DNA from: an uncultured Myxococcaceae bacterium
GTDB lineage: Bacteria; Myxococcota_A; Polyangia; Polyangiales; Ga0077539
DNA: 64,000 nt
NCBI GenBank assembly: GCA_945952225.1
Contig: CAMFHP010000008.1
Coordinates: 1-64,000 of the forward strand
Direction of reading: 5' to 3'
In this document: piece by piece, positions 809 to 62,651 of the stretch
How the letters are laid out: each line of letters opens with the position of its first letter
Numbering within the stretch: position 1 is the stretch's first letter
Translations under genes and position numbers: made by a program
The notes under the pieces: generated by a model
Told to the model about the DNA's origin: nothing
Seen by the model: the letters and a program-made list of their open reading frames with translations, nothing else
Database searches by the model: none

Positions 809-1465
809 ATGATGCACATCGGATGCTCTGGCTTCCCCGTCCCCGCGACGCGGTACCTGCGGGAGTTCATGCTGGCCGAGGTGGCGGACACGTTTCTCGG
901 CGTGCCGGGCCCCGCGCTGGTGCGTCGGTGGAAGCGCGAGGCCCCGGAGAACTTCGTGTTCACGGCCCTCGCCCCGCGTGACCTGGGCATCGACGGGTTC
1001 AAGCCCGCGGCGACGGTCGACAGCGCGTGGGAGGCGTTTCTGCCCGTGGCGCGCGAGCTCGACGCGAAGGTGCTGGTGATCCCGTCGAACCCCGAGACCC
1101 CGCCGGGCAAGACGAACCGCGCGCTCGTGCGAGCGTTCTTCGAGAAGATCACCGTCGAGAAGCTCCCGCCCCTCGTGTGGGAGCCTCCGCCCACGTGGGA
1201 CCTCAAGGAGTGCGAGGCCACCGTGAAGGACCTCAAGGTGCTCGTCGCGCGCGATCCGCTGCGCCACGCGCCCTTCGGCAAGGTCGCGCGGGGCTACTAC
1301 CGCCTGCCGGGACCGGCTGGATACAAGTCTCGCTACGAAGATCCGGCGCTCGACGAGGTGGCCGAGGCGATCCAGAAGACGCAGTCCGCCGAGACCTTCG
1401 TGGTGTTCGCCAACGTGGACATGTACGCGGACTCGAAGCGCCTGCGGAAGCTCCTCGACCTGTGA
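809..1465 (+). CDS. DUF72 family protein (YecE-like)
   Basis: Within ORF 746..1465 an internal ATG at 809 gives MMHIGCSGFPV...AEVADTFLG, which matches the DUF72 N-terminal IGTSGW / aEvNsTFY pattern. Length about 218 aa. Confidence 0.7.
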   Translation: MMHIGCSGFPVPATRYLREFMLAEVADTFLGVPGPALVRRWKREAPENFVFTALAPRDLGIDGFKPAATVDSAWEAFLPVARELDAKVLVIPSNPETPPGKTNRALVRAFFEKITVEKLPPLVWEPPPTWDLKECEATVKDLKVLVARDPLRHAPFGKVARGYYRLPGPAGYKSRYEDPALDEVAEAIQKTQSAETFVVFANVDMYADSKRLRKLLDL

Positions 1466-1484
1466 TCCTCCCGGGCGCGCCGCG

Positions 1485-2648
1485 ATGATCCCCGCCGCCG
1501 TCGCGACCGCCCTCAGCGCCCTCTGGTGGGCGTGGACGCTCTACGCCACGGTCCGCACGATCCAGACGCTCCCGGTGCTCGCGCGCGACACCTCGCCGCC
1601 GCCTCCATCGTGGCCGCGCGTCTCGCTCGTGGTGCCCGCCCGCAACGAGGCGCGCGACCTCGAAAAGGGCATCCGCACACGCCTCGACGACGACTACCCC
1701 AACCTCCAGGTGGTGCTCGTCAACGACCGCTCCACCGACGCGACGGGGGCCCTCGCCGACGCCCTCGCCGCCCGCGATCCGCGCGTCCGCGTGGTGCACG
1801 TCACCGAGCTCCCCGCGGGCTGGCTGGGCAAGCTCCACGCGATGCAGCGCGGGGCCGAGGCGAGCGACGGCGACTGGATCCTCTTCAGCGACGCCGACGT
1901 CGAGTTCGCACCGGGAACCCTGCGCCGCGCGATCGCCCACTGCGAGCACGGCGCCTACGACCACATGACCGTGGTGCCGGGGTTCCGCGCGCAATCGTTC
2001 GCGCTCGATGCGACGCTCAACGTGTTCTGCCGCGAGCTCGTGGCGGGGGCGCGTCTCTGGCGTGTGTCGGACCTCACGTCGCGCGCGGCCGTGGGCGGCG
2101 GCATGTTCAACCTCGTGCGACGCAGCCTGTGGACGCGCACGCCGGGCCTCGAATGGCTGCGTCTCGAGATCGCCGACGACGTGGTGCTCGGGCAGATGTT
2201 GAAGCAGCACGGCGCGCGGCCCGTGGTGGTGCAGGCCGTGAGCGCGGTCACGCTCGACTTCTACAAGACGCTCGGCGAGATGGCCTGGGGCCTTGAGAAA
2301 TCGGGCTTCGCGATCATCGGACGCTACCGCGTGTCGGTGATGCTGCTCTCGTGCACGCTGGGCCTCGTGGCCGAACTGGGATGGCTCGCGGGCCTCGCGC
2401 TCCCCTCGCCCGCATGGCGCGCGCTCTCGCTCGCGGCGGGTGCGATGTCGCTGCTCTCGGTGGTGCTGCTGATGCACTGGGCCGGGCGCCGTGTGATCGC
2501 GGGGCTCGCGTATCCCTTCGGGCTCGTGGCGCTCGTGGCGATGGTGTTCCGCTCGGCGTGGCTCGTGTGGCGTCGCGGCGGCGTGGTGTGGCGCGACACG
2601 CTCTACCGCGTCGAGGAGCTACGGGCCCACTCGCGGCTCACGCTCTGA
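1485..2648 (+). CDS. Family 2 glycosyltransferase, membrane-anchored
   Basis: N-terminal TM helix, then VSLVVPARNEA...VVLVNDRSTD...DWILFSDADV, which are the GT-A DxD-type motifs. The C-terminal third is multi-TM. ATG at 1485. Confidence 0.8.
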   Translation: MIPAAVATALSALWWAWTLYATVRTIQTLPVLARDTSPPPPSWPRVSLVVPARNEARDLEKGIRTRLDDDYPNLQVVLVNDRSTDATGALADALAARDPRVRVVHVTELPAGWLGKLHAMQRGAEASDGDWILFSDADVEFAPGTLRRAIAHCEHGAYDHMTVVPGFRAQSFALDATLNVFCRELVAGARLWRVSDLTSRAAVGGGMFNLVRRSLWTRTPGLEWLRLEIADDVVLGQMLKQHGARPVVVQAVSAVTLDFYKTLGEMAWGLEKSGFAIIGRYRVSVMLLSCTLGLVAELGWLAGLALPSPAWRALSLAAGAMSLLSVVLLMHWAGRRVIAGLAYPFGLVALVAMVFRSAWLVWRRGGVVWRDTLYRVEELRAHSRLTL

Positions 2649-3242
2649 CGGCACCGCGGGCGACCACGCACCGAGGCGGGTCTCCATGGGGTCCTCGTCG
2701 AAGAGCCAGTGCCAGAGGGTGCGTCCGTCGCCCGCGGGCTCGCACAGAAAGGCCGCGTCGAGGCACACGACCTTCTTCGCGCGGAGCATGCCCTGCGCGC
2801 CCTTCACGAACATCGCGAGGCGCCGGTCGACCACGCCCACACAGCGTGACTCTTCGATCCACCAGCCGTCGCCGTCGCGCGCGCCGGAGAGCGTGACCTC
2901 CTGCAGCGTCGCGTAGCGGCCCATCGCCGAGACGCCCACACGGAGCGCCGTCTCGACGGGTGCGTCGGGCGCGTCACCGAGGCCCTCACGCGCCGCAGCC
3001 CACGCGCGCGCGTCGACGGTGGGCACGAGGTAGATCCAGTCGGCGACGGTTCCGCGCACGGGCACCGCGAGCACGGGGAGCACGTCGGCGAAGGCGCGGG
3101 CGAGCGCGTGGAGCTCGTCGTCGGCGAAGGGCGCCGCGTCGAAGACCTCGTCGATGCACGCGCGGGCCACGAGGGCGCGCACGGCGTCCTTCTGGCGCTC
3201 GCGGTCGCGGGTGATGCCGCAGCTCGATCCGCACGAAGACAT
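2619..3242 (-). CDS. Hypothetical protein
   Basis: ORF of 207 aa filling the gap downstream of the TPR gene on the same strand, with GC3-rich codons. I recognise no motif. Start uncertain. Confidence 0.4.
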   Translation of the reverse strand: MSSCGSSCGITRDRERQKDAVRALVARACIDEVFDAAPFADDELHALARAFADVLPVLAVPVRGTVADWIYLVPTVDARAWAAAREGLGDAPDAPVETALRVGVSAMGRYATLQEVTLSGARDGDGWWIEESRCVGVVDRRLAMFVKGAQGMLRAKKVVCLDAAFLCEPAGDGRTLWHWLFDEDPMETRLGAWSPAVPSEREPRVGP

Positions 3243-3281
3243 CGGTGGGTCGCGGTGTGGAGGGGTCGAACGGTCGCGCGC

Positions 3282-4364: not shown

Positions 4365-6275
4365 TCAGGCGTTGGACCAGAAGTGCTTCGCGCCCCGCGC
4401 CACGCGCTCGCGCGTGAGGTCGAAGTCGTAGCGGCGCGACGCGCGCGGATCGCCCGAATAGGCTTCGAGGCAGCGGTCGATGACCGCGAGCGCCGTGTCG
4501 CGCAGGTGGGGATGGTGGTGCACCACGAAGGTGATCGCCTCGCCGAGCGCGCGCACCTCGTCGTAGGCGCCCTCGTGCGTGGCGTTCCATTCGAGCTGCG
4601 CGAGGAGCAGCGGGAGCGCGTCGGCGCCGAGGTGGTGGGCGAGCATCTTCGAAGCCATGCGGGTGGTCGGGTGCGGGTACATCCGTCCGCCGCGCTCCCG
4701 GCCCGCGAGCGCGCGCGCCACGAGGTCGAGCGTGAGGGCCTCGGTGGACCATGCGTCGGGGATTCCCCCCTCCGGCCACCCCTGCGCAGCGAGGGTCTCG
4801 AAATGCGCGCGCAGAAAGAGCCGCTCTCCTTCGCCCTCGAAGGGAATCGCGTTCGTGTACGGCCCGCTCGGAATGCCCATGCCGCGGTCGTACGAATCGC
4901 CGAGGGGATGGGACACATCGCACGGCAACACGTCGTTCGCGCGCATCCACGCGAGCACCGCGCGCACCGTCGCGAGCGTGGCGGCCCCTGCGTCCTGCGC
5001 CCACCCGCCGTCGGTGCCCGCCGAGCCCCAGTGCCACCCGTGCGTGCGCAGCTCGTAGCGGTCGAGCAGGTCTTGCGTGAGCCCTTCGGAGACGCGCCCC
5101 GCGAGCCCCGACGGCGTGGCCGAGCGCAGCATCGAGAGGGCGACGCGCAGGTCCTTCGGGTGCCGCTCGAAGGCCCCGAGCTGAAGGCCGATGTGCAGGC
5201 CGCGCAACGACTCGTCGACCACCGCGAGGCGTTCGAGCGCGAGCCGACGAAACGCGATGGGCGATGCATCGAGTCCCCGCGCGTGGCCGACGCCCTTCAC
5301 GAGATCGACGGCGCACTCGCGGTGCCACGGCACGAACCATCGCTGCGCGCCGCGCACGCCGAGAAGGCCCGGACGGCGCGTAGGCAGACGCGGCGTGTGT
5401 CCCTTGTAGACCGCGGCTTCGGGCTCGGGCCCCGGGTGCGCGCCCCACGCCGAGACCTCGTAGCGCGTGACCGCGCCCGTCGCGAGGTCGTGCGCTTCGA
5501 CGGTGTCGTTCGTGGGCTGCGCGAGGATCGTCGCGCCGTCGACCGCGGGCACGCAGAGGCTCACCACCTCGTGCACGGCGACCTCGCCCGCGCGGGTGAT
5601 CGAGACGCAGCGCACGGTGTCGTTCGAACGGTCGCGCACGAGCACCCACGCGGTGTCTCCCGCGAGGGCGAGGCCGACGTCGGCGCCGGGGTGCACGGCG
5701 AGCGGGAGCTTCCACCACACGGCGTCGTGGGCCGCGTCGACGCCGAGGGAGCCCGCGTAGACGTGGTCGTGGATGCGCGCGAGAAAGTGTCCGTCGCACG
5801 TGGTCGTGAGGTCGAACGACTCGGGCAGCCATCCCGCGCGGTCGTCGGCCTGCGGACCCACGGTGCGCGCATCGAGGGCGCGCGCCGCCGAGAGGTCGAC
5901 CTGACGCTCGTGGCGCGCCGAGTCTCCATCGATCGTCGACACATCGAGCCCGTGCGCGGCGACGGTCACGAGGTGCTCCGCGTCGCCGAGGGTGACCAGT
6001 TGCTGCGGGTGCGCGCCGCGCGAGAGCTTCGCGCGAAGTCCGAGCGCGGGCAGGCCGAGGAGCGACGTGCCCGGGTTGCCGTAGGCGCCCGTGTGCGTGC
6101 GTCCCCACACGAGCAGCGCGCCCTGCCGCGCGTCGATCGAGACGACGCCTGTGGGCGCCGAGACCTTCGCCTGGTGCTTCACCTTCACGGCCTTGCCGAG
6201 CGCGAAGCGGGTGATGCCGAACACGTCGGCGACGAAGAGCGAGGAACCGTCGGGCGCGAAGAGCAGATGGGCCAT
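4365..6275 (-). CDS. Hypothetical protein, about 636 aa
   Basis: The internal ATG giving MAHLLFAPDGSSLFVADVFG (derived from the sequence) is preferred over the low-complexity N-terminal extension of ORF 4365..6632. Same strand and probably the same operon as the TPR gene. No recognisable catalytic motif. Confidence 0.55.
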   Translation of the reverse strand: MAHLLFAPDGSSLFVADVFGITRFALGKAVKVKHQAKVSAPTGVVSIDARQGALLVWGRTHTGAYGNPGTSLLGLPALGLRAKLSRGAHPQQLVTLGDAEHLVTVAAHGLDVSTIDGDSARHERQVDLSAARALDARTVGPQADDRAGWLPESFDLTTTCDGHFLARIHDHVYAGSLGVDAAHDAVWWKLPLAVHPGADVGLALAGDTAWVLVRDRSNDTVRCVSITRAGEVAVHEVVSLCVPAVDGATILAQPTNDTVEAHDLATGAVTRYEVSAWGAHPGPEPEAAVYKGHTPRLPTRRPGLLGVRGAQRWFVPWHRECAVDLVKGVGHARGLDASPIAFRRLALERLAVVDESLRGLHIGLQLGAFERHPKDLRVALSMLRSATPSGLAGRVSEGLTQDLLDRYELRTHGWHWGSAGTDGGWAQDAGAATLATVRAVLAWMRANDVLPCDVSHPLGDSYDRGMGIPSGPYTNAIPFEGEGERLFLRAHFETLAAQGWPEGGIPDAWSTEALTLDLVARALAGRERGGRMYPHPTTRMASKMLAHHLGADALPLLLAQLEWNATHEGAYDEVRALGEAITFVVHHHPHLRDTALAVIDRCLEAYSGDPRASRRYDFDLTRERVARGAKHFWSNA

Positions 6276-6470
6276 GGCGGCGCGGACTCTATCGGTTCGC
6301 GCGGCGTCGGTCAGCGCGTTGTGCGACGCGCGTCGGGCCCCGTCGCCGATGCGAGGCGGACGCACCGCAGACGTTTGCACGGTGTTGCGTGAACGCCGCC
6401 GCAGCGCGACGCATCGGGAGCGGTCACGGGGCGCCCACGAGGGCACCGCCGCGCCGAGGGAACCCACACC

Positions 6471-6902
6471 ATGCAAGCGCTCCAGGGCGCGCGCCGCGTT
6501 GCGGTCGCGTGCGGCGTCGTCGTCTGCCTGCTCACCGGCTGCTACAGCGGCACCGCCGCGTACGTGCCACGTCACGCGCGCCTCGGCGTCGACGGCGCCC
6601 GCGCGATGCGCGCCATCGAAGACACGGTGCACGCCGCGGGTCTCACCGTGGTCTCACGCGACGCGCGACGCGGCTCCCTCGTCGCCCTGAGCACCACCAC
6701 GGCGCTCGGCGACATGGCGACGCGCGAGCGCTGGGTCTTCGGCCTCCGCGGCGACGACGTGCACGTCGAGATGCACCCCGAGACGCGCGATGCCAACGCG
6801 TGGGTGCCCCTGCGCCTCGTGTGCGACTGCTACCAGTACGCCCGCGAGCGCGAGATGCTCCGGGCGATCCGCGCGCGACTCATCGACGCGCGACGGGGAT
6901 GA
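6471..6902 (+). CDS. Small lipoprotein
   Basis: Signal peptide with a lipobox (VVCLLTGC, then YSG). GAGGGA ribosome-binding site 8 nt upstream of the ATG. 143 aa. Confidence 0.55.
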   Translation: MQALQGARRVAVACGVVVCLLTGCYSGTAAYVPRHARLGVDGARAMRAIEDTVHAAGLTVVSRDARRGSLVALSTTTALGDMATRERWVFGLRGDDVHVEMHPETRDANAWVPLRLVCDCYQYAREREMLRAIRARLIDARRG

Positions 6903-6942
6903 CCCGCAGCCACGGCGTGCGTGCTAGGGTCCGCGCCCTCCG

Positions 6943-7740
6943 ATGGGCGGCGCCATTCACATCTTCGTGACCCTGCCGACGCTGATCTACACGGTGCTGC
7001 TCGGGGCCACGCTGCTCTACTGGCTCTCGGTGGTGCTCGGTGCGCTCGACCTCGACGCGCTCGGCGGCGACGGCGCAGACCACGGCGGCGACGCGCACCA
7101 CCACGACGCGGGCGATGCGTCGGGTGACGGCGATGGCGACGCCGACGGCGACGGCGATCATCCCGGTCACGGCGACCTGCTCTCGGCCCTCGGCGGCATG
7201 TCGATCCGCAAGGTGCCGCTCACGATCTCGCTGAGCTTCACGGTGATCTTCGGCTGGCTGCTCAGCGCGCTCACGGTGCTCTTCGTCGGCGACGTCGCGC
7301 GGCGTGCGGGCGTGCCCTCCGCGGCCTTCAACGCGGTGACCTTCACGCTCACGCTGCTGGTCGCGCTGCGCCTCGCGGGTCTCGCGGTGAGGCCCATCGC
7401 GAAGGTCTTCGAAGCGCGCGGCGCCACGAAGAAGGAGCAGCTCACGGGACGCCTCGCCGAGGTCTCGACCGCGCGGCTCGATGCGCGCTTCGGTCAGGTG
7501 CTCGTCGCCGATGGCGGCGCGGGGCTGCTCATCGACGCGCGCTGGGAGGGCGACCGCACGCTCCGTCGCGGCGAGCGTGTGGTGATCACGCACTGGGACG
7601 CCGAGCGCGCCGTCGCCCACGTCGAACCCCTCGATGCGAGCCCGCGTGTGCGCGCGGTCGACGAGGGCGAGCGCGCGGAGGCAGAGCTTTCGCATTCGGC
7701 TGAAAAACAGACCAATCGACGCGGATCCGATTCGGGGTAA
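6943..7740 (+). CDS. NfeD-like / YqiJ-like inner-membrane protein; usual flotillin partner
   Basis: Three predicted TM helices, a His/Asp/Gly-rich loop (GDGADHGGDAHHHDAGDASGDGDGDADGDGDHPGHGD), and a C-terminal OB-fold-like segment (GQVLVADGGAGLLIDARWEGDRTLRRGERVVITHWDAERAVAHVEP) resembling the NfeD C-terminal beta-barrel. It lies immediately upstream of a flotillin gene, as in yqiJ-yqiK. Confidence 0.7.
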   Translation: MGGAIHIFVTLPTLIYTVLLGATLLYWLSVVLGALDLDALGGDGADHGGDAHHHDAGDASGDGDGDADGDGDHPGHGDLLSALGGMSIRKVPLTISLSFTVIFGWLLSALTVLFVGDVARRAGVPSAAFNAVTFTLTLLVALRLAGLAVRPIAKVFEARGATKKEQLTGRLAEVSTARLDARFGQVLVADGGAGLLIDARWEGDRTLRRGERVVITHWDAERAVAHVEPLDASPRVRAVDEGERAEAELSHSAEKQTNRRGSDSG

Positions 7741-52194: not shown

Positions 52195-54048
52195 TCAGTG
52201 CGCGTGGGGCTCGCTGCGATCGCCGGGCTCGGCGGGCGCCATCGCGGCGAACCACGCGCGAGGCCCGAGTCGCACGAGGCTTCGCACGAGCACGGCCGCG
52301 AGAAACGCCGCGCAGGCGAGCTCCCACCACGCGTGCGTGTGGGCCACGAGGTGGTGCATCTCGGGCACCGCACTTCGGGGCACGAGCGCGTTCACGGCCA
52401 CCCCCAGCAGCACCGACGCCGTGAGGCTCGCGAACGCATAGGCGAGCGCCGCGCGGTTGCCGAGCGCGCGACGGATCGCGGCGATCACCGGGAGGTTCGT
52501 TCCTGGCGCCACGAGCACGAACGCGAGCGCAGCGCCCACGGAGGCGCCCTTGTGCACGAGCATCGCCGCGAAGGGCGTCGCCCCCTGCGCGCACATGTAC
52601 AGCGGAACGCCCGCGAGCGCGGCGACCACCACGTCGAGCGGCGCGCCGAGCGAGGCGATGCGCGCGGGGTCGATCGCGGCTTCGAAGGCCGCGGCGAGAC
52701 AGAGACCCACCACGTACCAGGCCGCCACGTGGTCGAGGGTCGGGCCCACCGCGCGGCGCAGCGCGTAGCGCACGCGACCGGCGTGGTCCGCGGGCGGAAG
52801 CTCATCGGCGGGCGTGTCGCGCCATCGCAGCACGGGGCGCATGAGGGCCTTCGCGGGCGCCGCGCGGAGTGACACGCGCATGGTCACGTTGCGCGCGCTC
52901 CACGCGACGACGAGGGCCACGACGACGGCCACCGCGAGGCCCGACGCGATGCGCGCCACCGCGAGCGGAGCGCCCAGCAGTCGGAACGAGAACACGGCGC
53001 CGCCCACGTCGACGGCGGGCGTTCCTGCGGCGAAGGCGGCGACGGCGGCGACGGGCACACCCGCCGCGAGGAGGCTGCGCACGAGCGGGAGCACGCCGCA
53101 CGAACACTGCGGCAGCGGCACACCGAAGACCACACCGCGGAGGGCCTGCGAGAGCGACGCGCCGCCGCTCAGCCATCCCGCCACACGCCGCGGAACCCAC
53201 GTCTGCACCGCGCTCGCCGCGAGGAGCCCCACGAGCATCGACGGCGCGGTCTCGACGAAGAGCGGCCCCAGCGACTCGACGAACGACAGCTCGTGCGGCC
53301 GCGCGTGGCGCAGCACGCTGTCGGGGTCGGGGATCCACGTCGCGAGGCCCACTCCCCCGAGAAAGGCCGCGGCCGAGAGGGCCTTCGTGCCCGCCGTGGG
53401 TGACACCCTTCCGTGGCGATGCGTGGCGAGTCGCAACATCGCGCCGATGCCGAAGGCCGCCACCGCGTCGAACACCGCGTCGGGAATGCGCGCGAGCAAC
53501 GCGCTGCCGAGGAGCGCGCCCACCACCGTCGCCGACGCCACGAGCGCGAGCCGCGGAATCGCGCGACGCCACCCCATCGCGGGCACGAGCGCCGTCGCGA
53601 GAAAGAGCCCCTCGGGCAGTCGATGAAGCACCAGCGCGACGCCGAGGCCCGCGCTCACCGACCCGTGGTGCTCGCCCGCGGCCGTGGCCATCGCGAGCCC
53701 CGCCCCATCACCGAGCGCGTGCACCACGAGGGCCGGGAGCACCACCGCCGCGCCGAGGCGGTCGTCGTCGTGGTGCGCGCGACGGTCGGCGAACCACAGC
53801 ACGCCGTAGCCCAGCGCGACGAGCGCGAGCCCCGCGGCGCCCACCTCGTCGACCACGTGGGGCACGAGGTGGAGCAGCAGGAGGGCGGGCACCACGCCCA
53901 GCGTGAAGCCGTCGATGAACGACGACGGCGCGCGGCGGCCGCGTCCCCACGCGACGAGGAGCGGTCCCACCGCGAACCCCATCAGCGACAGGAGGAGCAC
54001 CGGCCCGAGCACGGCGGCGGTTCTGCCCTCGCGTGCGCGAATTCGCAA
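52195..54048 (-). CDS. Fused metal transporter: ZIP-family-like N-terminal domain plus COG0701-type two-cysteine permease C-terminal domain
   Basis: N-terminal half is His-rich multi-TM with an HRLPEG ZIP-like motif (compare HNFPEG in ZupT/ZIP proteins). C-terminal half has PLPQCSCGVLPLV (the CSCG motif of COG0701 predicted permeases) and GVPLYMCAQGATPFA. TTG start; the true start may be internal. Confidence 0.65.
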   Translation of the reverse strand: MRIRAREGRTAAVLGPVLLLSLMGFAVGPLLVAWGRGRRAPSSFIDGFTLGVVPALLLLHLVPHVVDEVGAAGLALVALGYGVLWFADRRAHHDDDRLGAAVVLPALVVHALGDGAGLAMATAAGEHHGSVSAGLGVALVLHRLPEGLFLATALVPAMGWRRAIPRLALVASATVVGALLGSALLARIPDAVFDAVAAFGIGAMLRLATHRHGRVSPTAGTKALSAAAFLGGVGLATWIPDPDSVLRHARPHELSFVESLGPLFVETAPSMLVGLLAASAVQTWVPRRVAGWLSGGASLSQALRGVVFGVPLPQCSCGVLPLVRSLLAAGVPVAAVAAFAAGTPAVDVGGAVFSFRLLGAPLAVARIASGLAVAVVVALVVAWSARNVTMRVSLRAAPAKALMRPVLRWRDTPADELPPADHAGRVRYALRRAVGPTLDHVAAWYVVGLCLAAAFEAAIDPARIASLGAPLDVVVAALAGVPLYMCAQGATPFAAMLVHKGASVGAALAFVLVAPGTNLPVIAAIRRALGNRAALAYAFASLTASVLLGVAVNALVPRSAVPEMHHLVAHTHAWWELACAAFLAAVLVRSLVRLGPRAWFAAMAPAEPGDRSEPHAH

Positions 54049-54093: not shown

Positions 54094-54540
54094 TCAGGCG
54101 CAGCGGTCGCAGCGGCCCTTGAGCTGGATCTCGACCTCGCGGCCCTTCAGCGAACGCGGCGCGCCGCGCGTCGAGTGGAGCTCGACGATCTCGTCGGGGA
54201 GGCACTGCACGTCGCCGCACTCGTCGCAGACGAAGTGGGGATGGCGCTTCTCTTCGTGCGAGCGCACGTCGTCGGCGCGGAGTTCGAAGCGCCACACGTG
54301 ATCGCCCACGTCGGTGCGCCGCAGGAGCCCGGCCTCCGTGAGGTCGGTGAGGTTGCGGTAGATCGTCGCGCGATCCCACTGGGGCGCGAGCGCTTCGGCG
54401 AGCTCGCCGTGCGTCACCGGCGACGTGGCCGCCGAGAGGCGCTGGAGCACCGCCACGCGCGGCGACGTCACGCGGAGGCCCGACGCGCGGATCTTCTCGC
54501 GGAGCTCATCGAGCGAAGGCGTCGTTCGCGGTCGCACCAT
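54094..54540 (-). CDS. zur: Fur family transcriptional regulator, probably Zur
   Basis: 148 aa with an HTH (RVTSPRVAVLQRLSAAT...HGELAEAL...ATIYRNLTDLTEAGLL) and HFVCDECGDV...CDRC (CxxC...CxxC structural zinc site). Adjacent to a predicted zinc transporter. Confidence 0.8.
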   Translation of the reverse strand: MVRPRTTPSLDELREKIRASGLRVTSPRVAVLQRLSAATSPVTHGELAEALAPQWDRATIYRNLTDLTEAGLLRRTDVGDHVWRFELRADDVRSHEEKRHPHFVCDECGDVQCLPDEIVELHSTRGAPRSLKGREVEIQLKGRCDRCA

Positions 54541-54596: not shown

Positions 54597-55961
54597 TCAG
54601 CGACGCGCGCGTCGACGACGGAGCGCCGCGAGCGCCAACGCCACGAGCGCGACGAGCGGCGAGCGCGTCGGGAGACCCGGCGTGCGGCATCCGCAGGTGG
54701 TGTCGGGAGGCGCAGGCGTGGCTGCATCGGGCGCTGCGTCGAAGGCCGCGTCGCGTGCGGCATCGCGCGGAACGTCGGCGGTGGCGTCGCGCGCGCCGCT
54801 GTCGAACACGGGCGCCGAGGCGTCGGGCTCCGGCGCTTCGAGCATGCGCTGCAAGAGGGGCCAGCGCTCGACGCAGATGTCCGCGCCCTCGGAGCGCTGC
54901 GTGCACGTGGGCGGGCCCACGAAGGCGTCGAAGTTCGAGAAGTTCACGACGGTCGAGAAGCTGCGTCCGCCGTCGGACGAACGGCCGAGCGCGAAGGGCT
55001 GGTTGATCCAGTCGGAGCACGCCCACAGCGTGCCCGCGTGCTGACGCAGACACAGCACGGGCAGCGGGTTCACCTGTCGGAAGGTCTCGCCGCCGTCGTC
55101 GCTGCGCTGGAGCCCCTCGGCGATGCTCCCGTACCAGACCGTGCGGCCGTCGTCGGAGATCGCGAAGCCCAGCATCGGGTCGCGCGCCATCGCCACGCGT
55201 TCGAAGCGCATGCCGCCGTCGCGTGAGCGCAGGAGCTCCGTGCCCAGACCCGCGGCCGCGCGCACGAACACCACGTCGGGGTTCGTCGGATCGACGCCGC
55301 TCACCCAGAGCGAGTCGTAGGTTCCGCCGTCGCCCGTGAGCGCGCGCATCGTGGCGCCGCCGTCGTCGCTGCGAAAGAACACGGGCGCGAAGCCCTCCTC
55401 GCGGCGCCCCGTGAGGTAGAGCCGCATCGGGTCCGAGGGCGCGACCTCGATCGTGTCGAAGGCCACGCCCGCGACCCCATCGCCCACACGGCGAAACGCG
55501 CCCGTCATCGTGTCGCCGCGAAACACCGCGTTCACGCCCGACTGCGCGCCCTCGATGGCGTAGGCCACCGTGCCCGCAGGCGTGGTCGTGAGGTCGGCGA
55601 AGAAGCGCCCGCGCACGCTCTCGACCTCGTCGTGCTTGCACGCGTCGAAGGTCGTGCGGAGGCCCTCTTCGTACGCGTAGAGCACGGTGCCGCCCGCGGT
55701 CACCTCGATGGGCGCGTCGTAGTTGAACGCGGGCACGAGCGGGTAGTAGAGCCCCTCCTCGCACATCCACGCGAAGGTGCGGCCGCCGTTGCGGCTCAGG
55801 AGCAGACCGAAGGTCGTGCGGAGGGCGATCACGTCGCTCGACGGGCCGGGGCCCACGACGACGTGCTGCGCGGTGGGAAAGCGTCCGTTGGCCTGCGAGG
55901 CAGACGACGCCGCGGCGAGCGAGAGGGCGGCGGCGAGGGCGACGATGCGGGCGGTGCGCAT
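54597..55961 (-). CDS. Secreted BNR/Asp-box repeat protein with a MYXO-CTERM sorting signal
   Basis: Internal ATG (MRTARIVALAAALSLAAASSASQA, signal peptide). Repeated SxDxGxTW/F BNR motifs (SRNGGRTF, SDDGGATM, SRDGGMRF, SDDGRTVW, SDDGGETF, SSDGGRSF). The C-terminus TTCGCRTPGLPTRSPLVALVALALAALRRRRARR matches the MYXO-CTERM pattern. Confidence 0.7.
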   Translation of the reverse strand: MRTARIVALAAALSLAAASSASQANGRFPTAQHVVVGPGPSSDVIALRTTFGLLLSRNGGRTFAWMCEEGLYYPLVPAFNYDAPIEVTAGGTVLYAYEEGLRTTFDACKHDEVESVRGRFFADLTTTPAGTVAYAIEGAQSGVNAVFRGDTMTGAFRRVGDGVAGVAFDTIEVAPSDPMRLYLTGRREEGFAPVFFRSDDGGATMRALTGDGGTYDSLWVSGVDPTNPDVVFVRAAAGLGTELLRSRDGGMRFERVAMARDPMLGFAISDDGRTVWYGSIAEGLQRSDDGGETFRQVNPLPVLCLRQHAGTLWACSDWINQPFALGRSSDGGRSFSTVVNFSNFDAFVGPPTCTQRSEGADICVERWPLLQRMLEAPEPDASAPVFDSGARDATADVPRDAARDAAFDAAPDAATPAPPDTTCGCRTPGLPTRSPLVALVALALAALRRRRARR

Positions 55962-56069
55962 GAGGCGCGGGACTATGGGTGACGGCCCCGCGCGATTGCA
56001 ACCCGCCACGGCGCGCGCGGCGAAACACCCGCTGCCCGCGCGCGACGCCCTGCGGTAGAGGTGCGGCCC

Positions 56070-56828
56070 ATGGCCGACCCGACCGTGCACACCGTGGTGT
56101 TCCTGCACTCGTTTCCGATGGACCGCGCGATGTGGGACGCGCAGCGCGCCGCGGTGGAATCCGACGGACACCGCGCGCTCGCCCTCGACCTCGCGGGCTT
56201 CGGCGACGCACCGCTCCCGCCCGACGCCGCGCCCACGATCGAGACCTACGCCGCGCAGGTGCTCTCCACGCTCGATGCACACGGCGTGGCGCGCGCGGTC
56301 TTCGTGGGCCTCTCGCTCGGCGGCTACGTCGCGCTCTGCATCGCCTCCATGGCCCCTGCGCGCGTCGCGGCCCTCGTGCTCGCCGACACGCGCAGCGCCG
56401 CCGACGACCCGCCCACGCGCGCGGGACGCATCATCAACCTCTCGCTCGTGCGCGACCGCGGCGTCGAAGCCCTCTTCGACAAGATGCGCCCGATGCTCCT
56501 CGCGCCGGACCACGACCCCGCGGTGGCGACGCAGCTCCGCGCGATGGCGCTCCGTCAACGCCCGGAGTCCGTGGCCTTCGCGCTCGTCGCGATGCGCGAC
56601 CGGCCCGACCGTGGCGCCGTGCTCGATGCGTTCGCCGCACCGACGCTCGTGCTCGTGGGAGACCGTGACGTCATCACACCGCCCGCGGAGATGACCGCCA
56701 TGGCCGCGCGGATGCGCGACGCGCGCGTCGAGGTGCTCGAAGGCGCGGGACACCTCTCGAACCTCGAACGGCCCGAGGGCTTCAACCGCGCGCTGCGGGC
56801 GTTCCTGCGCGGGCTGCCGGGCGCGTAG
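56070..56828 (+). CDS. Alpha/beta hydrolase
   Basis: VVFLHSFPMD; GLSLGG nucleophile elbow (GxSxG); C-terminal GAGHLSN. Confidence 0.75.
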   Translation: MADPTVHTVVFLHSFPMDRAMWDAQRAAVESDGHRALALDLAGFGDAPLPPDAAPTIETYAAQVLSTLDAHGVARAVFVGLSLGGYVALCIASMAPARVAALVLADTRSAADDPPTRAGRIINLSLVRDRGVEALFDKMRPMLLAPDHDPAVATQLRAMALRQRPESVAFALVAMRDRPDRGAVLDAFAAPTLVLVGDRDVITPPAEMTAMAARMRDARVEVLEGAGHLSNLERPEGFNRALRAFLRGLPGA

Positions 56829-57132
56829 CGCGCTCGCGTTCGAGCTTCGCGATCCGGGCGTCGACGCGGTCGAGGTGCGAGGTCGAGAAGTGCCGGTCGA
56901 CGAAGCGTCCGACGCCGAAGAGGGCCGCGAGGGCGCAGAACACCTCGGTGCGTTCGGGCGCGCCGAGCCAGGCCTTCAGCGCCCAGCCCACGCCGTACCC
57001 GAGCCCGAAGCACACGATCGCGATGGGAAAGAGCGCGGCGTAGCGGTTGGTCTCCCACCAGGTGATGCGGTCGAGGAGCCGCTGGCGCTCGGCGCGCGCG
57101 AGGGTCAGGGGGTCGTTCACGTCGTCGGCCAT
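56782..57132 (-). CDS. Small membrane hypothetical protein
   Basis: Internal ATG (MADDVNDPLTLARAERQRLLDRITWWETNRYAALFPIAIVCFGLGYGVGWAL...). Two TM segments. Its 3' end overlaps the convergent hydrolase gene. Confidence 0.35.
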   Translation of the reverse strand: MADDVNDPLTLARAERQRLLDRITWWETNRYAALFPIAIVCFGLGYGVGWALKAWLGAPERTEVFCALAALFGVGRFVDRHFSTSHLDRVDARIAKLERERATRPAARAGTPAARG

Positions 57133-57306
57133 CGCAGGGCGCGCGACTCTACACGCCGCGGCCCGCAGCGCCCACACCCCGACCGCGCAGGGCACCGCAG
57201 CGCGTCACCGTCGACGGGAGGCGACATGCGCGGAACACCGTCCACACAAGGGATTTTCGCGCAAATGCGTCGTGACCGTCGCGCGAGGTGCGTTACCGTC
57301 GCGGCC

Positions 57307-59082
57307 ATGCGAACCGCGATGCGACTCGTCTCTCTGGTCACCCTCGCCTCGTGCGCTGCGATGTCGTGCAGCGACGGCGGCACGTCTCCGACGCCGACGC
57401 CTTCGCAAGACGGCGGCGTGTGCACGCCCGACCGCGCGCAGTGGAACAGCACCGTGCGCGGCCTCGTCGCGCAGCAGTGCGGCGGGTGCCACGGCGACAC
57501 GCCCTCGTACGGCGCGCCCTACTCGCTGCTCGACTACGACGCGCTCCTTCGCGCGCGCACCGGCGGACGCCCCGTCGATCGCATCGCGGCGCGCATGATG
57601 GCCGGCACCATGCCCCCGTCGGGCACGCCCGCGCCCACCGACGACGTGGCCCGCGCGATCGTGCAGTGGGCCACCTGCGGCGCGCAGACGCCGTCCGCGG
57701 GTCACGGCCTCCGCGCGACGCGCCCGGTGTTCCGCTCGCCCCCCACCGCGCCCTCGGGCATGGAGACCTGGGACCTCACCGCGCCGCAGTGGAGCGTCGG
57801 CCCCGACGTGCTCGACCGCTACCAGTGTTTCACCTTCGAGTTCCCCGGCACGACCGACCGCTTCGTGCGGCGCTTCGAACTCGTCGCCGACCAGCGCGCG
57901 GTGCTGCACCACGTGGTGCTCCTCCGCGACAACAACCGCGTGGCCCCGACGACGCCGTTCGAGTGCGGGAGCATGCCCGAGGGCAGCGACTACCTCTACG
58001 CCTGGGCGCCCGGTCAGGACGCGCTCCAGTTCCCCGAGGGCGGGCTTCGCATCACGCCGGGGCAGCGCCTCGTGATGCAGATCCATTACAACAACGGACA
58101 GCACCTCCCGAACCTCCGCGACAGCTCGGGCCTGCGCCTCTACCACACGGCGCCGAGCGGCACGGAGTACGGCATGGTCGCGCTCGGTCCGCTCGCCTTC
58201 CAGATCCCCGCGCGCTCCACGGGTCAGACGGCGAGCGCGTGCACCGTCACCCGCGAGTCGCGGATGCTCGCGGGCATGCCGCACATGCACCAGTTCGGCT
58301 CGACCTTCACCGAAGAGATCGTGCGCGCCGACAACTCGCGCGAGTCGCTCATCGGCATCCAGGGATGGCAGTTCGCGTCGCAGCTCTTCTACGACTTCAG
58401 CACCCCGCTCCACCCCGGCGACCGCATCGAGACGCAGTGCGTGTTCGACAACACCACCACGTCGACGGTGCGCAGCGGCGGACGCACGAGCGACGAGATG
58501 TGCTTCAACTTCGCGTACATCACGCCGCCCCCGTCGGAGCGCTACTGCGACCAGCCCGTGGGCTCGCCCGAGACGGTGCCGTACACCCCGGGCATGTGCG
58601 CGATCCCCGCGGCGCCCACGGACATCGCCACGGTGTCGGGCCGCGCGATGGTCGCTGCCGCGCCCGCCCTCGCCGGCGGCACGCTGCGCGACGGACGCTG
58701 GGAGCTCCAGGGCGTCACCTGGTATCTGAACTCGGGCATGGTGGGCACGAGCACCACGATCAACCTCGACGAGACCTCGCTCCACGCGCGCGGCCAGGTG
58801 TGGATCAACGGCACGCAGATCAACGCCGACCTCGTGACCCGTCTCAACCTCACGCTCGTCGGCGGCGCGCGCCTCTCGCGCGACCTGCCCACCACCTTCG
58901 CGGGCGCCCTCGCGAGCGGCACCACCTCGCCGCTGCGCCTCACGGCCTCGTGCCCGAGCTCTGGCGCGCCGCAGACCCTCGACTACGCCGTCGACGGCGA
59001 CACGCTCACCGTGGGACCGCCCGCGCAGAACTACTCGGGGCTCATGGTCACGCCGCGCTACCAGTTCCGCTTCGTGCGCTGA
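57307..59082 (+). CDS. Lipoprotein fusing a mono-heme cytochrome c module to a PHM/DBH-like copper type II monooxygenase domain
   Basis: MRTAMRLVSLVTLASC lipobox. QQCGGCHGD (CxxCH) with a downstream AGTMPP (candidate Met ligand). Then CuH-like HH (VLHHVVLL) plus a third His (MQIHYNN), a CuM-like HxH (GMPHMHQFG), and a Met in DEMCFNFAY. Spacing matches the PHM/DBH N- and C-domains. The start could be the upstream in-frame ATG at 57226. Confidence 0.65.
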   Translation: MRTAMRLVSLVTLASCAAMSCSDGGTSPTPTPSQDGGVCTPDRAQWNSTVRGLVAQQCGGCHGDTPSYGAPYSLLDYDALLRARTGGRPVDRIAARMMAGTMPPSGTPAPTDDVARAIVQWATCGAQTPSAGHGLRATRPVFRSPPTAPSGMETWDLTAPQWSVGPDVLDRYQCFTFEFPGTTDRFVRRFELVADQRAVLHHVVLLRDNNRVAPTTPFECGSMPEGSDYLYAWAPGQDALQFPEGGLRITPGQRLVMQIHYNNGQHLPNLRDSSGLRLYHTAPSGTEYGMVALGPLAFQIPARSTGQTASACTVTRESRMLAGMPHMHQFGSTFTEEIVRADNSRESLIGIQGWQFASQLFYDFSTPLHPGDRIETQCVFDNTTTSTVRSGGRTSDEMCFNFAYITPPPSERYCDQPVGSPETVPYTPGMCAIPAAPTDIATVSGRAMVAAAPALAGGTLRDGRWELQGVTWYLNSGMVGTSTTINLDETSLHARGQVWINGTQINADLVTRLNLTLVGGARLSRDLPTTFAGALASGTTSPLRLTASCPSSGAPQTLDYAVDGDTLTVGPPAQNYSGLMVTPRYQFRFVR

Positions 59083-59122
59083 GCGCCGCCCCACGCCGCG
59101 CTCGCGCATCGAACGCCTGCGC

Positions 59123-60742
59123 ATGAAGAAGCTCGTCTCGCTCTGCACCCTCAACAGCCTCCCCGACCGACGCGCGCAGCTCGTGAAGGGCCCCGACGGA
59201 CGCCGCTACGCGTGCGTGCGCCGCGGGTCGCGCGTCGACCTCCTCGACGATCGCTGCCCGCATGAGGGCCATCCGCTCTCGATGGGGCTCGTGCGCGACG
59301 GCGTGCTCACCTGTCAGTGGCACAACTGGAAGTTCTCCCTCGACGACGGCGCGTGCCTCCGCGGCGGCGAGCACGTGGCCCGCTACGACGCGGAGGTGCA
59401 CGACGGCGAGGTGTTCTTCGATCCGCGCCTCGACGACGACGACCGACGGGCGCGCATCCGTCACGACCTCGAACGCGCCCTCGAACGTGCGCAGGCCGAC
59501 GGCGCCACGCGCGAGGCGCTCCGTCTGCTGCCCTTTGAGGGCGGGCTCGACGAGGCCGTCGACGCGATGGTGCGCCACGCGATGGACCGCGACGGATGCG
59601 CCATCGCAGGCCACGCGCGCGCCGCGCTCTCGCTCCGCGACGCGGGTGTGCTCGACGACGCGGACGCCCTCGCCGTGCTCGCATCTGCGGCCGTGCGCGA
59701 AGGCGGATTGCGCGCGGTAGCGCCCTCCCCTGTGGCGCCCTCCCCCGCGACGCGCGCTGCGACCCTCGACGACGGCGAGGCCGTGCTCCTGGCGCTCCTC
59801 GATGAGCGCGTCGACGAGGCCGAGTCGTACGCGCGCGGAGTGCCGCCTTCCCACGCGATGCGCGCCCTCGACGCGTGGCTCATGCCCTGGGCCGCCCTCA
59901 AGCTCTGGAACGGCGGCGCCACCCTCGCCGCACTCGCCGACACGCGCGCCGTCGCGGCGCACCTCACCGACGGCACGCGCACGGCCTCGCTCGCGGCGCT
60001 CACCCGCGGCCTCGGCGTGGCGGTGGCCGAGAGCGACCTCCCGCCGTGGCGACACACGCGCAAGGCGCTGCTCGAAGCGCGCGTGATCCAACCGGGAACC
60101 GCGGCCCTCGACGACGCCGAGGCCCTCGCGCGCGACGCGCTCACCTCCGAGGGGCAGGGGCTCCATGCGACGCTCATCGCGCTCGACGCGGGCGCGTCTC
60201 CCGCCGCGGTGCTCACCGTGCTCGCGCGCACCGCCGCCGAACGCGCCGCCACCTGGAACGTCGCCCACTCGCGCGACGATCACCGCGACGTGCGCGCCCT
60301 CGACGCGACGCGCGCGCTGCGCTTCTGCCGCGCGGCGCAGACCCTCGCGGGAGCGGTTCCCGGTACGCACTCCGTCGCCCACGCGGTGCTCGCCGCGGGC
60401 CTCGTGGGCAAGCTCCGACGGCACACCCACGTCGCCGAAACACCCGCCCGCGCGCACGGCGCCGACACCCTCGCCGACGCCCTCGCACGCCGCGACGGTG
60501 CGGCCCTCCGCGCGCTCGTGAACGACGGCGCGTCGCTCGCCGCGCTGACCCGCGCCGCAGCCCTCGACGGCGACGGATCGCACGCCCCCTTCGCCGCCGA
60601 CTGCCACGCGATGGTGCGCGACGGAACGCTCACGGTCTCCGCGGCCCGCGACGCGATGGTGCGCGCGGTGTTCGAAGAGCCCCCGGCCTCGCTCGCACGC
60701 CTCGCGGCGAGGGCGAAGCGCGCGGTCGAACGCACGCGTTGA
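59123..60742 (+). CDS. Rieske [2Fe-2S] domain protein with a long C-terminal extension
   Basis: CPHEGHPL...CQWHNWKF (CxH-x(15-17)-CxxH Rieske motif) in the first about 100 aa. The remaining about 430 aa are Ala/Leu/Arg-rich with no recognised motif. Confidence 0.75.
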   Translation: MKKLVSLCTLNSLPDRRAQLVKGPDGRRYACVRRGSRVDLLDDRCPHEGHPLSMGLVRDGVLTCQWHNWKFSLDDGACLRGGEHVARYDAEVHDGEVFFDPRLDDDDRRARIRHDLERALERAQADGATREALRLLPFEGGLDEAVDAMVRHAMDRDGCAIAGHARAALSLRDAGVLDDADALAVLASAAVREGGLRAVAPSPVAPSPATRAATLDDGEAVLLALLDERVDEAESYARGVPPSHAMRALDAWLMPWAALKLWNGGATLAALADTRAVAAHLTDGTRTASLAALTRGLGVAVAESDLPPWRHTRKALLEARVIQPGTAALDDAEALARDALTSEGQGLHATLIALDAGASPAAVLTVLARTAAERAATWNVAHSRDDHRDVRALDATRALRFCRAAQTLAGAVPGTHSVAHAVLAAGLVGKLRRHTHVAETPARAHGADTLADALARRDGAALRALVNDGASLAALTRAAALDGDGSHAPFAADCHAMVRDGTLTVSAARDAMVRAVFEEPPASLARLAARAKRAVERTR

Positions 60743-60748
60743 CGACGG

Positions 60749-61376
60749 TCAGTCGGCGCGCTCCGCGGGCTTCGGATCGCGCGCCGCGAGCAGCGCCGCA
60801 GCCGCGAGGAGCGGCGCGAGCACGGCGTCGTAGAGCGCTTCGAACGAAGGCAGCGGACGCACCGTGGCGCGCTGCGAGGCGACGTTCATCGCGAGCGTGG
60901 CGAGGGCCGCGAGCGACCACCACCGCACGGCCTTCGGCGTCGCCTTCACGAGCAGCGCAACGGCACTGAGCGCCACCGCGCCGTCGAGCGCCGAGGCGAG
61001 GTTCGCGTAGGCGCCAGGGAGCCATCCAGCGCCCGCTGCGGAGAGCCGCGCGAGGCCCGCGAATCGCAGCACCGCGAGGCCGAGGGCGAACGCGGGAGAC
61101 GACGCCACGAGCGCGCGCCGCAACGGGGATGGCGCCTGCGTCGCGAGCACCATCGCCGCGAGGGCCGCCGCGCCGTGCCACTCGCGGAGCATCCGCGCGT
61201 GGGCGAGCCACGTCGCGCCGCCGAGCCACCCGAGGAGCGCGAGCATCCACACGCCCGCGGCGACACGTTCGCGCGCGGCCTTCGCGGCGAGCAGGGGCGC
61301 GAGGCCCGCGAGCAGCGCGGCGGTGGCCGACGTGCCCAGTACGATCGCAAAGAACAGCCTGGCGCTCTCGGACACG
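60749..61376 (-). CDS. Multi-TM membrane hypothetical protein
   Basis: Hydrophobic throughout (LFFAIVLGTSATAALLAGLAPLLAA...). Start uncertain: GTG around 61376 or the upstream ATG at 61498. Confidence 0.4.
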
Positions 61377-61485: not shown

Positions 61486-62439
61486 ATGAAGGCGTCAACC
61501 CTCACGCTCGACCGCGGCGGCGAGCGGATCTTCGTGTACGCGTGGCTCCCCGACGGCGACGCCCCGGTGCGCGGCGTGGTGCAGGTGAGCCACGGCATGG
61601 CCGAACACGCGGCGCGCTACGAGCCCCTCGCGGAGTCGCTCGTCGCGCAGGGCTTCGCGGTGTACGCCCACGACCACCGCGGCCACGGACGCACCGCGGG
61701 AGACCCTTCGCGCCGCGGACATTTCGCCGACCGTGACGGATGGCGCGCCGTCGTCGACGACCTCTACGCCGTGGGCGACCACGCGCGCGCGCAGCACCCC
61801 GGCGCACCGCACGTTCTCTTCGCCCACAGCATGGGCGCGTTCATGGGGCAGCAGGCCCTCTACGAGCGCGGCGGTGACTACGCCGCCGTGGTGCTCTCGG
61901 GCTCGACGAGTCCGGTGAGCAATCCGCTCGCGCCCATCGGACGCGTCGTCGCGCGGGCCGAGCGCTGGCGCCTCGGACCGAAGTCGGCGAGCGCGCTGCT
62001 CACGAAGCTCTCGTTCGGCGAGTTCAACCGCGCGTTCAAGCCCGCGCGCACCGAGTACGACTGGCTGAGCCGCGACGCCGCCCAGGTCGATCGCTACATC
62101 GCCGACCCGTGGTGCGGCTTCGACATGACGACGCAGTCGTGGGTCGACCTGCTCGACGCGCTGCCCGTGATCGCGGCGCCCGAGAACGTCGCGCGCATCC
62201 CGAAGGATGTGCCCGTGTACATCCTCGCGGGCTCGATGGACCCGGTGTCGGGCGCCGTGAAGGGCCTGCGCCAGCTCGTCGACGCGTGGAGCGCCGCGGG
62301 CCTGCGCGACCTCACGTGGAAGGTCTACGAGCAGGGCCGCCACGAGATGCTCAACGAAATCAACCGCGCCGAGGTGCTCGACGACCTCCGACGCTGGCTC
62401 GAACGAACCGTCCCCGCGAAGAAGGGAGATCCGTCATGA
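61486..62439 (+). CDS. Alpha/beta hydrolase (lysophospholipase / monoacylglycerol-lipase-like)
   Basis: GVVQVSHGMAEHAARYEPLAESL...AHDHRGHGRT, GHSMGA nucleophile elbow, C-terminal His (GRHEMLNE). Confidence 0.8.
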   Translation: MKASTLTLDRGGERIFVYAWLPDGDAPVRGVVQVSHGMAEHAARYEPLAESLVAQGFAVYAHDHRGHGRTAGDPSRRGHFADRDGWRAVVDDLYAVGDHARAQHPGAPHVLFAHSMGAFMGQQALYERGGDYAAVVLSGSTSPVSNPLAPIGRVVARAERWRLGPKSASALLTKLSFGEFNRAFKPARTEYDWLSRDAAQVDRYIADPWCGFDMTTQSWVDLLDALPVIAAPENVARIPKDVPVYILAGSMDPVSGAVKGLRQLVDAWSAAGLRDLTWKVYEQGRHEMLNEINRAEVLDDLRRWLERTVPAKKGDPS

Positions 62440-62651
62440 AGCAGGCGACCCTCACCATCACCGGCATGCACTGCGGCGGCTGCGTGGCCTCCGTCGACCG
62501 CGTGCTCGCGAAGCTGCCCGGCGTGGGCGAGCGCAAGATCACCGTCGGGTCCGCGACGCTCACCGTCGACGAGACGCAGGTGGGCGAGGCGCAGCTCCGC
62601 GACGCCATCGACGGCGCGGGCTTCGACGTGACCGACGTCGCGTGGTCGTGA
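62436..62651 (+). CDS. Heavy-metal-associated (HMA) domain protein, CopZ-like metallochaperone
   Basis: ATGA overlap with the hydrolase stop. MKQATLTITGMHCGGCVASVDRVLAKLPGVGERKITVGSATLTVDE...LRDAIDGAGFDV is the classic GMxCxxC ferredoxin-like HMA fold. 71 aa. Confidence 0.8.
   Translation: MKQATLTITGMHCGGCVASVDRVLAKLPGVGERKITVGSATLTVDETQVGEAQLRDAIDGAGFDVTDVAWS

Follow-up and report, generated by a model that had tools for sequence, protein, structure and literature searches.

Amidated hormones and noradrenaline are made in animals by copper monooxygenases with a common type of core. In peptidylglycine alpha-hydroxylating monooxygenase (PHM), the catalytic core of PAM (structures 1PHM, 1OPM and 1SDW), both coppers are reduced by ascorbate, with CuH supplying electrons and CuM activating O2, and the entry of electrons at CuH and their passage over the 11 Å cleft between the two coppers are still under debate (PMC9064607). 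The related group of dopamine beta-monooxygenase (DBH), tyramine beta-monooxygenase and MOXD1 (4ZEL) carries an N-terminal DOMON beta-sandwich, to which DBH adds a C-terminal dimerisation domain, and a 2020 metalloproteome survey places PHM and DBH under eukaryotes only (PMC7435645). Here we analyze a window of 64,000 nucleotides from an uncultured Myxococcaceae bacterium (GTDB order Polyangiales; assembly GCA_945952225.1, contig CAMFHP010000008.1, positions 1–64,000) in which one gene, termed gene A, encodes a predicted lipoprotein that joins a c-type cytochrome domain to a PHM/DBH-type two-copper core, and the next, gene B, encodes a Rieske [2Fe-2S] protein. Our reading of gene A, which we regard as probable though well short of certain, is that its product would be a PHM-type copper monooxygenase fed by heme c, with heme in the place of ascorbate.

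Two plus-strand open reading frames (ORFs) span exactly gene A (57307–59082; 591 aa plus stop) and gene B (59123–60742; 539 aa plus stop); they lie 40 bp apart, and codon-position G+C backs both as real genes in a window of ~72% G+C. From its ORF, Pfam matches, homologues and an AlphaFold2 model, gene A is read as a three-domain lipoprotein in which cytochrome c comes first, then a two-copper core of the PHM/DBH type and last a barrel resembling lipocalins. Within the core, Pfam Cu2_monooxygen (PF01082) matches residues 155–266 at 36.2 bits (cut-off 30) and Cu2_monoox_C (PF03712) matches residues 298–418 at 45.3 bits (cut-off 23). The PHM N-subdomain (57769–58104, +) holds the putative electron-transfer site CuH (H201, H202, H260) and the C-subdomain (58198–58560, +) the putative O2-binding, catalytic site CuM (H326, H328, M398). 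A phmmer search of the PDB with gene A matched only PHM (rat, E = 3e-14) and human DBH (E = 4e-13), with 24% identity to PHM.

Residue correspondences with PHM were taken from the printed phmmer alignment to 1OPM, whose chain numbering is offset by 44. All six of the His and Met residues that the initial annotation had proposed as copper ligands align with those of PHM: H201 and H202 with H107 and H108, and H260 with H172, at CuH; H326 and H328 with H242 and H244, and M398 with M314, at CuM. The second-sphere residues Y79 and Q170 of PHM correspond to Y172 and Q258, and its disulfides C81–C126 and C293–C315 to C174–C220 and C378–C399. The six ligands, Y172, Q258 and both cysteine pairs are invariant in 30 homologues (40–66% identity). 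At least two PHM disulfides are therefore conserved, which fits an oxidising compartment, and PHM, like gene A as predicted below, is extracytoplasmic.

The AlphaFold2 model of gene A (mean predicted local distance difference test, pLDDT, 86.6) has the two-subdomain beta-sandwich fold of the PHM/DBH superfamily; PNGase F, a hydrolase without copper ligands, resembles it in fold only. Gene A differs from PHM in being a bacterial lipoprotein with an added N-terminal heme c domain and C-terminal barrel, and from PAM in having no PAL partner domain. Where DBH and its group carry DOMON, gene A carries the cytochrome c domain; a Pfam scan found no DOMON match in gene A, whereas the domain is present in a eukaryote-type relative (P0250), and gene A is therefore not of the DBH subtype. 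The DBH dimerisation domain is absent as well. We hold this domain assignment with high confidence, and it bears out the PHM/DBH-like core of the initial annotation. As a separate observation on the model, its best Foldseek match in the PDB is 6ala_A (TM 0.79, against ~0.70 for open PHM structures), which is the H108A–citrate form of PHM described as a “closed” conformer (PMC9064607); this likeness may be a modelling artefact.

The residues that hold the peptide substrate in PHM are not kept. R240 of PHM forms a salt bridge to the C-terminal carboxylate of the peptide (PMC9064607). In gene A this position is M324, and two further residues of the carboxylate site, N316 and Y318, are replaced by F400 and F402. 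N316 and Y318 assist carboxylate binding in PHM. Across the family the replacements are Met, Phe, Trp and others for R240, Phe or Tyr for N316 and Phe for Y318; among 106 near-complete relatives (defined below), position 324 is M, F, W, A, S, G or L and never Arg. Because the carboxylate-binding residues give way to hydrophobic ones, the predicted substrate of gene A is not peptidylglycine, and on these residues the protein is a member of the PHM/DBH superfamily rather than a PHM in the strict sense.

In front of the copper core, the N-terminus of gene A (MRTAMRLVSLVTLASCAAMSC) reads as a lipoprotein signal. The signal peptide (57307–57369, +) ends in a lipobox whose Cys21, the predicted lipidation site, sits in an L-A-x-C-G pattern and shows a conservation of at least 90% across the 30 homologues. 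A low-complexity linker follows to about residue 36 (pLDDT <50 over residues 1–36). The lipoprotein call of the initial annotation is therefore retained, and the gene A product is, by this signal, predicted to be exported and lipid-anchored.

The class I c-type cytochrome domain comes next (residues 37–132; 57415–57702, +), assigned from invariant motifs and from Pfam matches across the family. Its heme-attachment motif CGGCH (C58-G-G-C61-H62) lies at 57478–57492 and M102-P-P at 57610–57618; C58, C61, H62, M102, P103, P104, C39 and C124 are all invariant in the 30 homologues, so that the CxxCH motif with a downstream Met noted at the outset is a family feature. Position and invariance point to M102 as the axial heme ligand, and a disulfide between C39 and C124 probably staples the domain. 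Pfam Cytochrome_CBB3 aligns with residues 51–121 at 20.3 bits in the whole protein and 23.8 bits with the domain isolated. The same model matches 18 of 19 N-terminal domains of the family at E ≤ 0.01, and a profile of the cytochrome domain matched c-type cytochromes in 16 of 16 PDB hits (CcoP, c5, c6, c-552, c-553 and bc1 cytochrome c), each weakly (E = 0.03–3). In the AlphaFold2 model the domain has the expected four-helix pattern, with CxxCH ending the first helix. It is also the best-conserved part of gene A (mean column identity 59%, vs. 52% overall), and purifying selection acts on all three domains.

Beyond the copper core, gene A has a third domain of ~160 aa that the initial annotation did not mention: a C-terminal up-and-down beta-barrel of lipocalin/YceI-like form (residues 428–591; 58588–59079, +). 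Modelled alone it reaches a pLDDT of 95.6, and it matches nothing in Pfam or among PDB sequences. A disulfide may join C431 and C549, both of which are invariant. The barrel is missing from relatives of ~450 aa.

The fusion recurs throughout a bacterial family. A word-indexed search returned 299 gene A homologues of ~590 aa, the best 120 almost all of 577–636 aa, and the GTDB species representatives contain no fewer than 310 loci that encode gene A relatives. The best 80 of these 310 loci are nearly all from Myxococcota metagenome-assembled genomes (MAGs; Polyangiales, Sandaracinaceae, Bradymonadia), often with two to three copies per MAG, and all family members examined that carry an organism label are Myxococcota, as are the named ~450-aa forms without a barrel. 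Paralogues are present, too, in the cultivable Sandaracinus amylolyticus (e.g., DB32_008257). Querying exhaustively with the copper core alone gave 5578 cluster representatives at an E-value of 1e-3 or lower, of which 107 reach 1e-30 or lower. The initial description of such domains as rare in bacteria accordingly needs qualifying.

Domains and ligands were counted in the first 146 cluster representatives that the copper-core search returned; 106 of them are near-complete (≥400 aa). Among the 35 representatives of at least 540 aa, 33 have one CxxCH upstream of the core and 34 have all six copper ligands; among the 71 of 400–539 aa, the numbers are 61 and 67. As CxxCH is present in 94/106 and the full ligand set in 101/106, the fusion is not a one-off, and by this census it is the defining, conserved state of a sizeable multi-copy bacterial clade. 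Four copper-core relatives (P0243, P0310, P0238 and P0247; 466–538 aa) lack both CxxCH and all six ligands and may be pseudo-enzyme paralogues; P0243 comes from a MAG labelled Deltaproteobacteria.

Joining a heme domain to a copper enzyme has precedents. A copper nitrite reductase of three domains with a tethered cytochrome c is an established design (PMC6278305, PMC13324648). The Ralstonia pickettii enzyme RpNiR shares with gene A the linkage of a class I cytochrome c and a copper enzyme in one chain, which builds in the cognate one-electron donor. It differs in that its T1/T2 copper domains are unrelated cupredoxins, its cytochrome is C-terminal and it reduces nitrite, whereas gene A has the PHM fold, an N-terminal cytochrome and, as proposed, a hydroxylation chemistry that depends on O2. 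A second parallel is the pairing of cellobiose dehydrogenase with lytic polysaccharide monooxygenase (LPMO), where, as proposed for gene A, a heme domain is the one-electron donor to a copper monooxygenase. The cytochrome domain of cellobiose dehydrogenase is the physiological donor to LPMO, which ascorbate also drives in vitro; there the heme, of the b type, is carried by another protein than the copper, which forms a mononuclear histidine-brace site.

On the reading that we prefer, heme c would accept single electrons from periplasmic respiratory carriers and pass them to the CuH site; CuH would reduce CuM, where O2 would be activated and the substrate hydroxylated. The tethered heme would take the role that ascorbate has in the eukaryotic enzymes, and in comparison with PHM and PAM the reductant is presumably heme, not ascorbate. 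Bacteria generally make no ascorbate, and the potentials of ascorbyl/ascorbate and of His/Met heme c are similar (roughly +0.25 to +0.3 V). Because the fusion is conserved across the family, a built-in route from heme to copper is plausible. Several points weigh against this account. Heme attachment, copper content and activity are each predictions from sequence; we infer the convergence of the copper-ligand side chains from superposition and alignment; both Cytochrome_CBB3 scores fall under the curated cut-off of 27; the gene context of 80 loci gives no pointer to a substrate; and co-transcription of gene A with gene B is conceivable, given the 40-bp gap in which no terminator was found.

The same architecture could instead serve a small-molecule redox enzyme, in which the heme is a respiratory link and the copper sites reduce O2, nitrite or peroxide, or in which they act as a dehydrogenase, oxidising a substrate and sending its electrons out to the heme. 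The likeness to cytochrome c-tethered copper nitrite reductase would suit such an enzyme, as would the loss of every substrate-binding residue of PHM, the lack of biosynthetic neighbors and the binding of nitrite, azide and CO at CuM of PHM (entry titles 3mib, 3mic and 3mlj). Yet the His3 and His2Met sites, the equivalents of Y79 and Q170 and the fold are of the O2-activating hydroxylase type, a terminal reductase is known for no member of the PHM fold, and multi-copy expansion with a variable position 324 is more in keeping with a hydroxylase that has diversified in its substrates. We therefore consider a redox enzyme of this kind unlikely, though it keeps some weight beside the heme-fed monooxygenase.

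As to what a heme-fed monooxygenase would act upon, the barrel and the hydrophobic replacements in the pocket hint, speculatively, at a small hydrophobic ligand. One can tentatively picture, at somewhat less than even chances, an ascorbate-independent family that draws on the periplasmic respiratory electron pool by way of its fused heme c and hydroxylates lipids or small hydrophobic molecules that the barrel presents, its paralogues reflecting diversification of substrates. Myxococcota include predatory groups.

The surroundings of gene A relatives were compared in 80 loci (up to 8 kb per side, 1.06 Mb in total). By ORF clustering, the commonest neighbor family occurs in only 9 of the 80; since none recurs more widely, the gene A enzyme appears genetically self-contained. 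No conserved neighbor able to supply another reductant was found among these loci, and a Pfam scan of sampled neighbors gave unrelated functions (kinases, dNK, SDR, amine oxidase). In five loci of one subclade the gene immediately downstream, in the same orientation, is a CcmF/CcmH fusion for cytochrome c maturation (e.g., L031:9894–12605), which fits a real heme c protein.

Nearby in the window are a FUR-family regulator (54094–54540, −), next to it a membrane protein of 617 aa that carries an ArsP_1 permease domain (52195–54048, −), and a 71-aa HMA protein (CopZ-like, MHCGGC; 62436–62651, +). As a copper-supply module these genes were rejected, being present in 0–1 of the 80 gene A loci. They would also be expected company for a non-catalytic lipoprotein that binds, stores or senses copper and/or heme in the periplasm on a PHM scaffold, and that such a scaffold can outlast its copper sites follows from the four relatives that have lost all ligands (P0243, P0310, P0238 and P0247). 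The rarity of metal-related neighbors in the other loci goes against this explanation, and the strict invariance of both ligand sets, Y172 and Q258 down to ~40% identity argues for catalysis; we regard a purely binding role as very improbable.

Gene B (59123–60742, +) was described at the outset as encoding a Rieske protein, and this is confirmed. Its Rieske [2Fe-2S] domain (59135–59422) is matched by Pfam Rieske (PF00355) at 39.8 bits (cut-off 20.3), and the motifs C45-P-H47 and C64-x-W-H67 keep their four ligands in every one of 24 homologues. Residues 5–97 match positions 3–101 of the 104 in the Rieske_2 profile, and residues 6–98 match a NirD-type model. The rest of the protein, a stretch of ~430 aa absent from the initial annotation (residues 101–539; 59423–60742), is Ala/Leu-rich, has a conserved S-D-L-P-x-W-R-x-T-R near residues 303–313 and finds no match in Pfam. 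Gene B relatives form their own conserved group of 500–600-aa proteins in Polyangiales and relatives, found in at least 561 metagenome stretches.

The initial annotation went further and suggested a self-contained periplasmic electron chain from the Rieske protein of gene B to heme c and on to the copper sites, a model in which the two genes would form a functional operon. The heme-to-copper part of that chain stands as plausible for the reason given above; the Rieske link does not stand. The arrangement itself speaks for it, with both genes on one strand and no terminator-like site in the short gap. The product of gene B, however, has neither a signal peptide nor room for one: position 59123 is the first start codon past the upstream stop, there is no earlier in-frame start, and an alignment of 24 homologues, read by eye, contains no N-terminal hydrophobic signal segment. 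Since it has no signal peptide, its Rieske fold begins at residue 5 and no in-frame start lies upstream, gene B is predicted to be cytoplasmic, whereas gene A is exported.

Nor is the pairing conserved. The 80 gene A loci contain no Rieske gene or gene B relative by tblastn (E ≤ 1e-5), and hmmsearch with the family profile or the Rieske part alone found no Rieske ORF in them even at E ≤ 1. The closest gene A relatives (L001, L002 and L004; 64–66% identity) have no Rieske gene in the available sequence, which for L001 extends only ~470 bp downstream. Reciprocally, among 84 independent gene B loci (80 metagenome and 4 assembly loci), one alone has a gene A relative, and there the genes are not adjacent. 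At that locus (L082, in a Myxococcales MAG; JAEUKI010000031.1) the pair lies at 1464–3263 (−) and 6001–7686 (+), 2.7 kb and three genes apart—a TetR gene and two uncharacterised ones—with a protoglobin gene nearby. The gene A relative, a paralogue of 41% identity, is encoded on the strand opposite to the gene B relative, and the locus has no other neighbor in common with the window. The proximity of the two at L082 could be counted in favor of the Rieske chain; we judge it a coincidence, and the adjacency in the window is most likely one too. On the counts from both directions and the missing export signal, coupling of the Rieske protein to gene A was rejected: it very likely lies outside the electron chain of gene A, and the Rieske-to-copper chain as first suggested is exceedingly improbable. 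The result corrects an attractive but unsupported inference of a Rieske partner encoded in the same operon.

The initial annotation also held that the system had not been described, and we found no published account. A search of full-text literature, with most subscription journals outside it, returned no cytochrome c-fused enzyme of the PHM/DBH type and no characterised bacterial member of that type. Gene A is a combination, itself undescribed, of known catalytic and donor modules, in a family already present in databases under generic names (“hypothetical protein,” “cytochrome c domain-containing protein,” “cytochrome c5,” “monooxygenase”). If the heme-fed monooxygenase reading is true, it would show PHM-type chemistry run without ascorbate and would add a new class of periplasmic oxygenases to Myxococcota. 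The covalent heme would then be a built-in optical probe of the electron-transfer steps, with entry at CuH made triggerable in a genetically tractable protein.

Some details of the locus remain to be recorded. The start of gene A is not certain; 57226 and 57319 are other in-frame candidates, and in the public annotation of this contig the gene begins 27 codons before position 57307. An ENA metagenome assembly contains an identical 17-kb contig, which is therefore not counted as an independent observation. A scan of 56700–61000 on both strands for promoters and terminators gave nothing and is uninformative at 73% G+C. The window contains no second copy of gene A and no other c-type cytochrome. 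Upstream, at 54597–55970 (−), is a secreted BNR/Asp-box-like protein whose C-terminus runs ...TCGCRTPG, then a hydrophobic stretch and an Arg-rich tail; this C-terminus looks like a MYXO-CTERM sorting signal and would fit the Myxococcota origin of the window.

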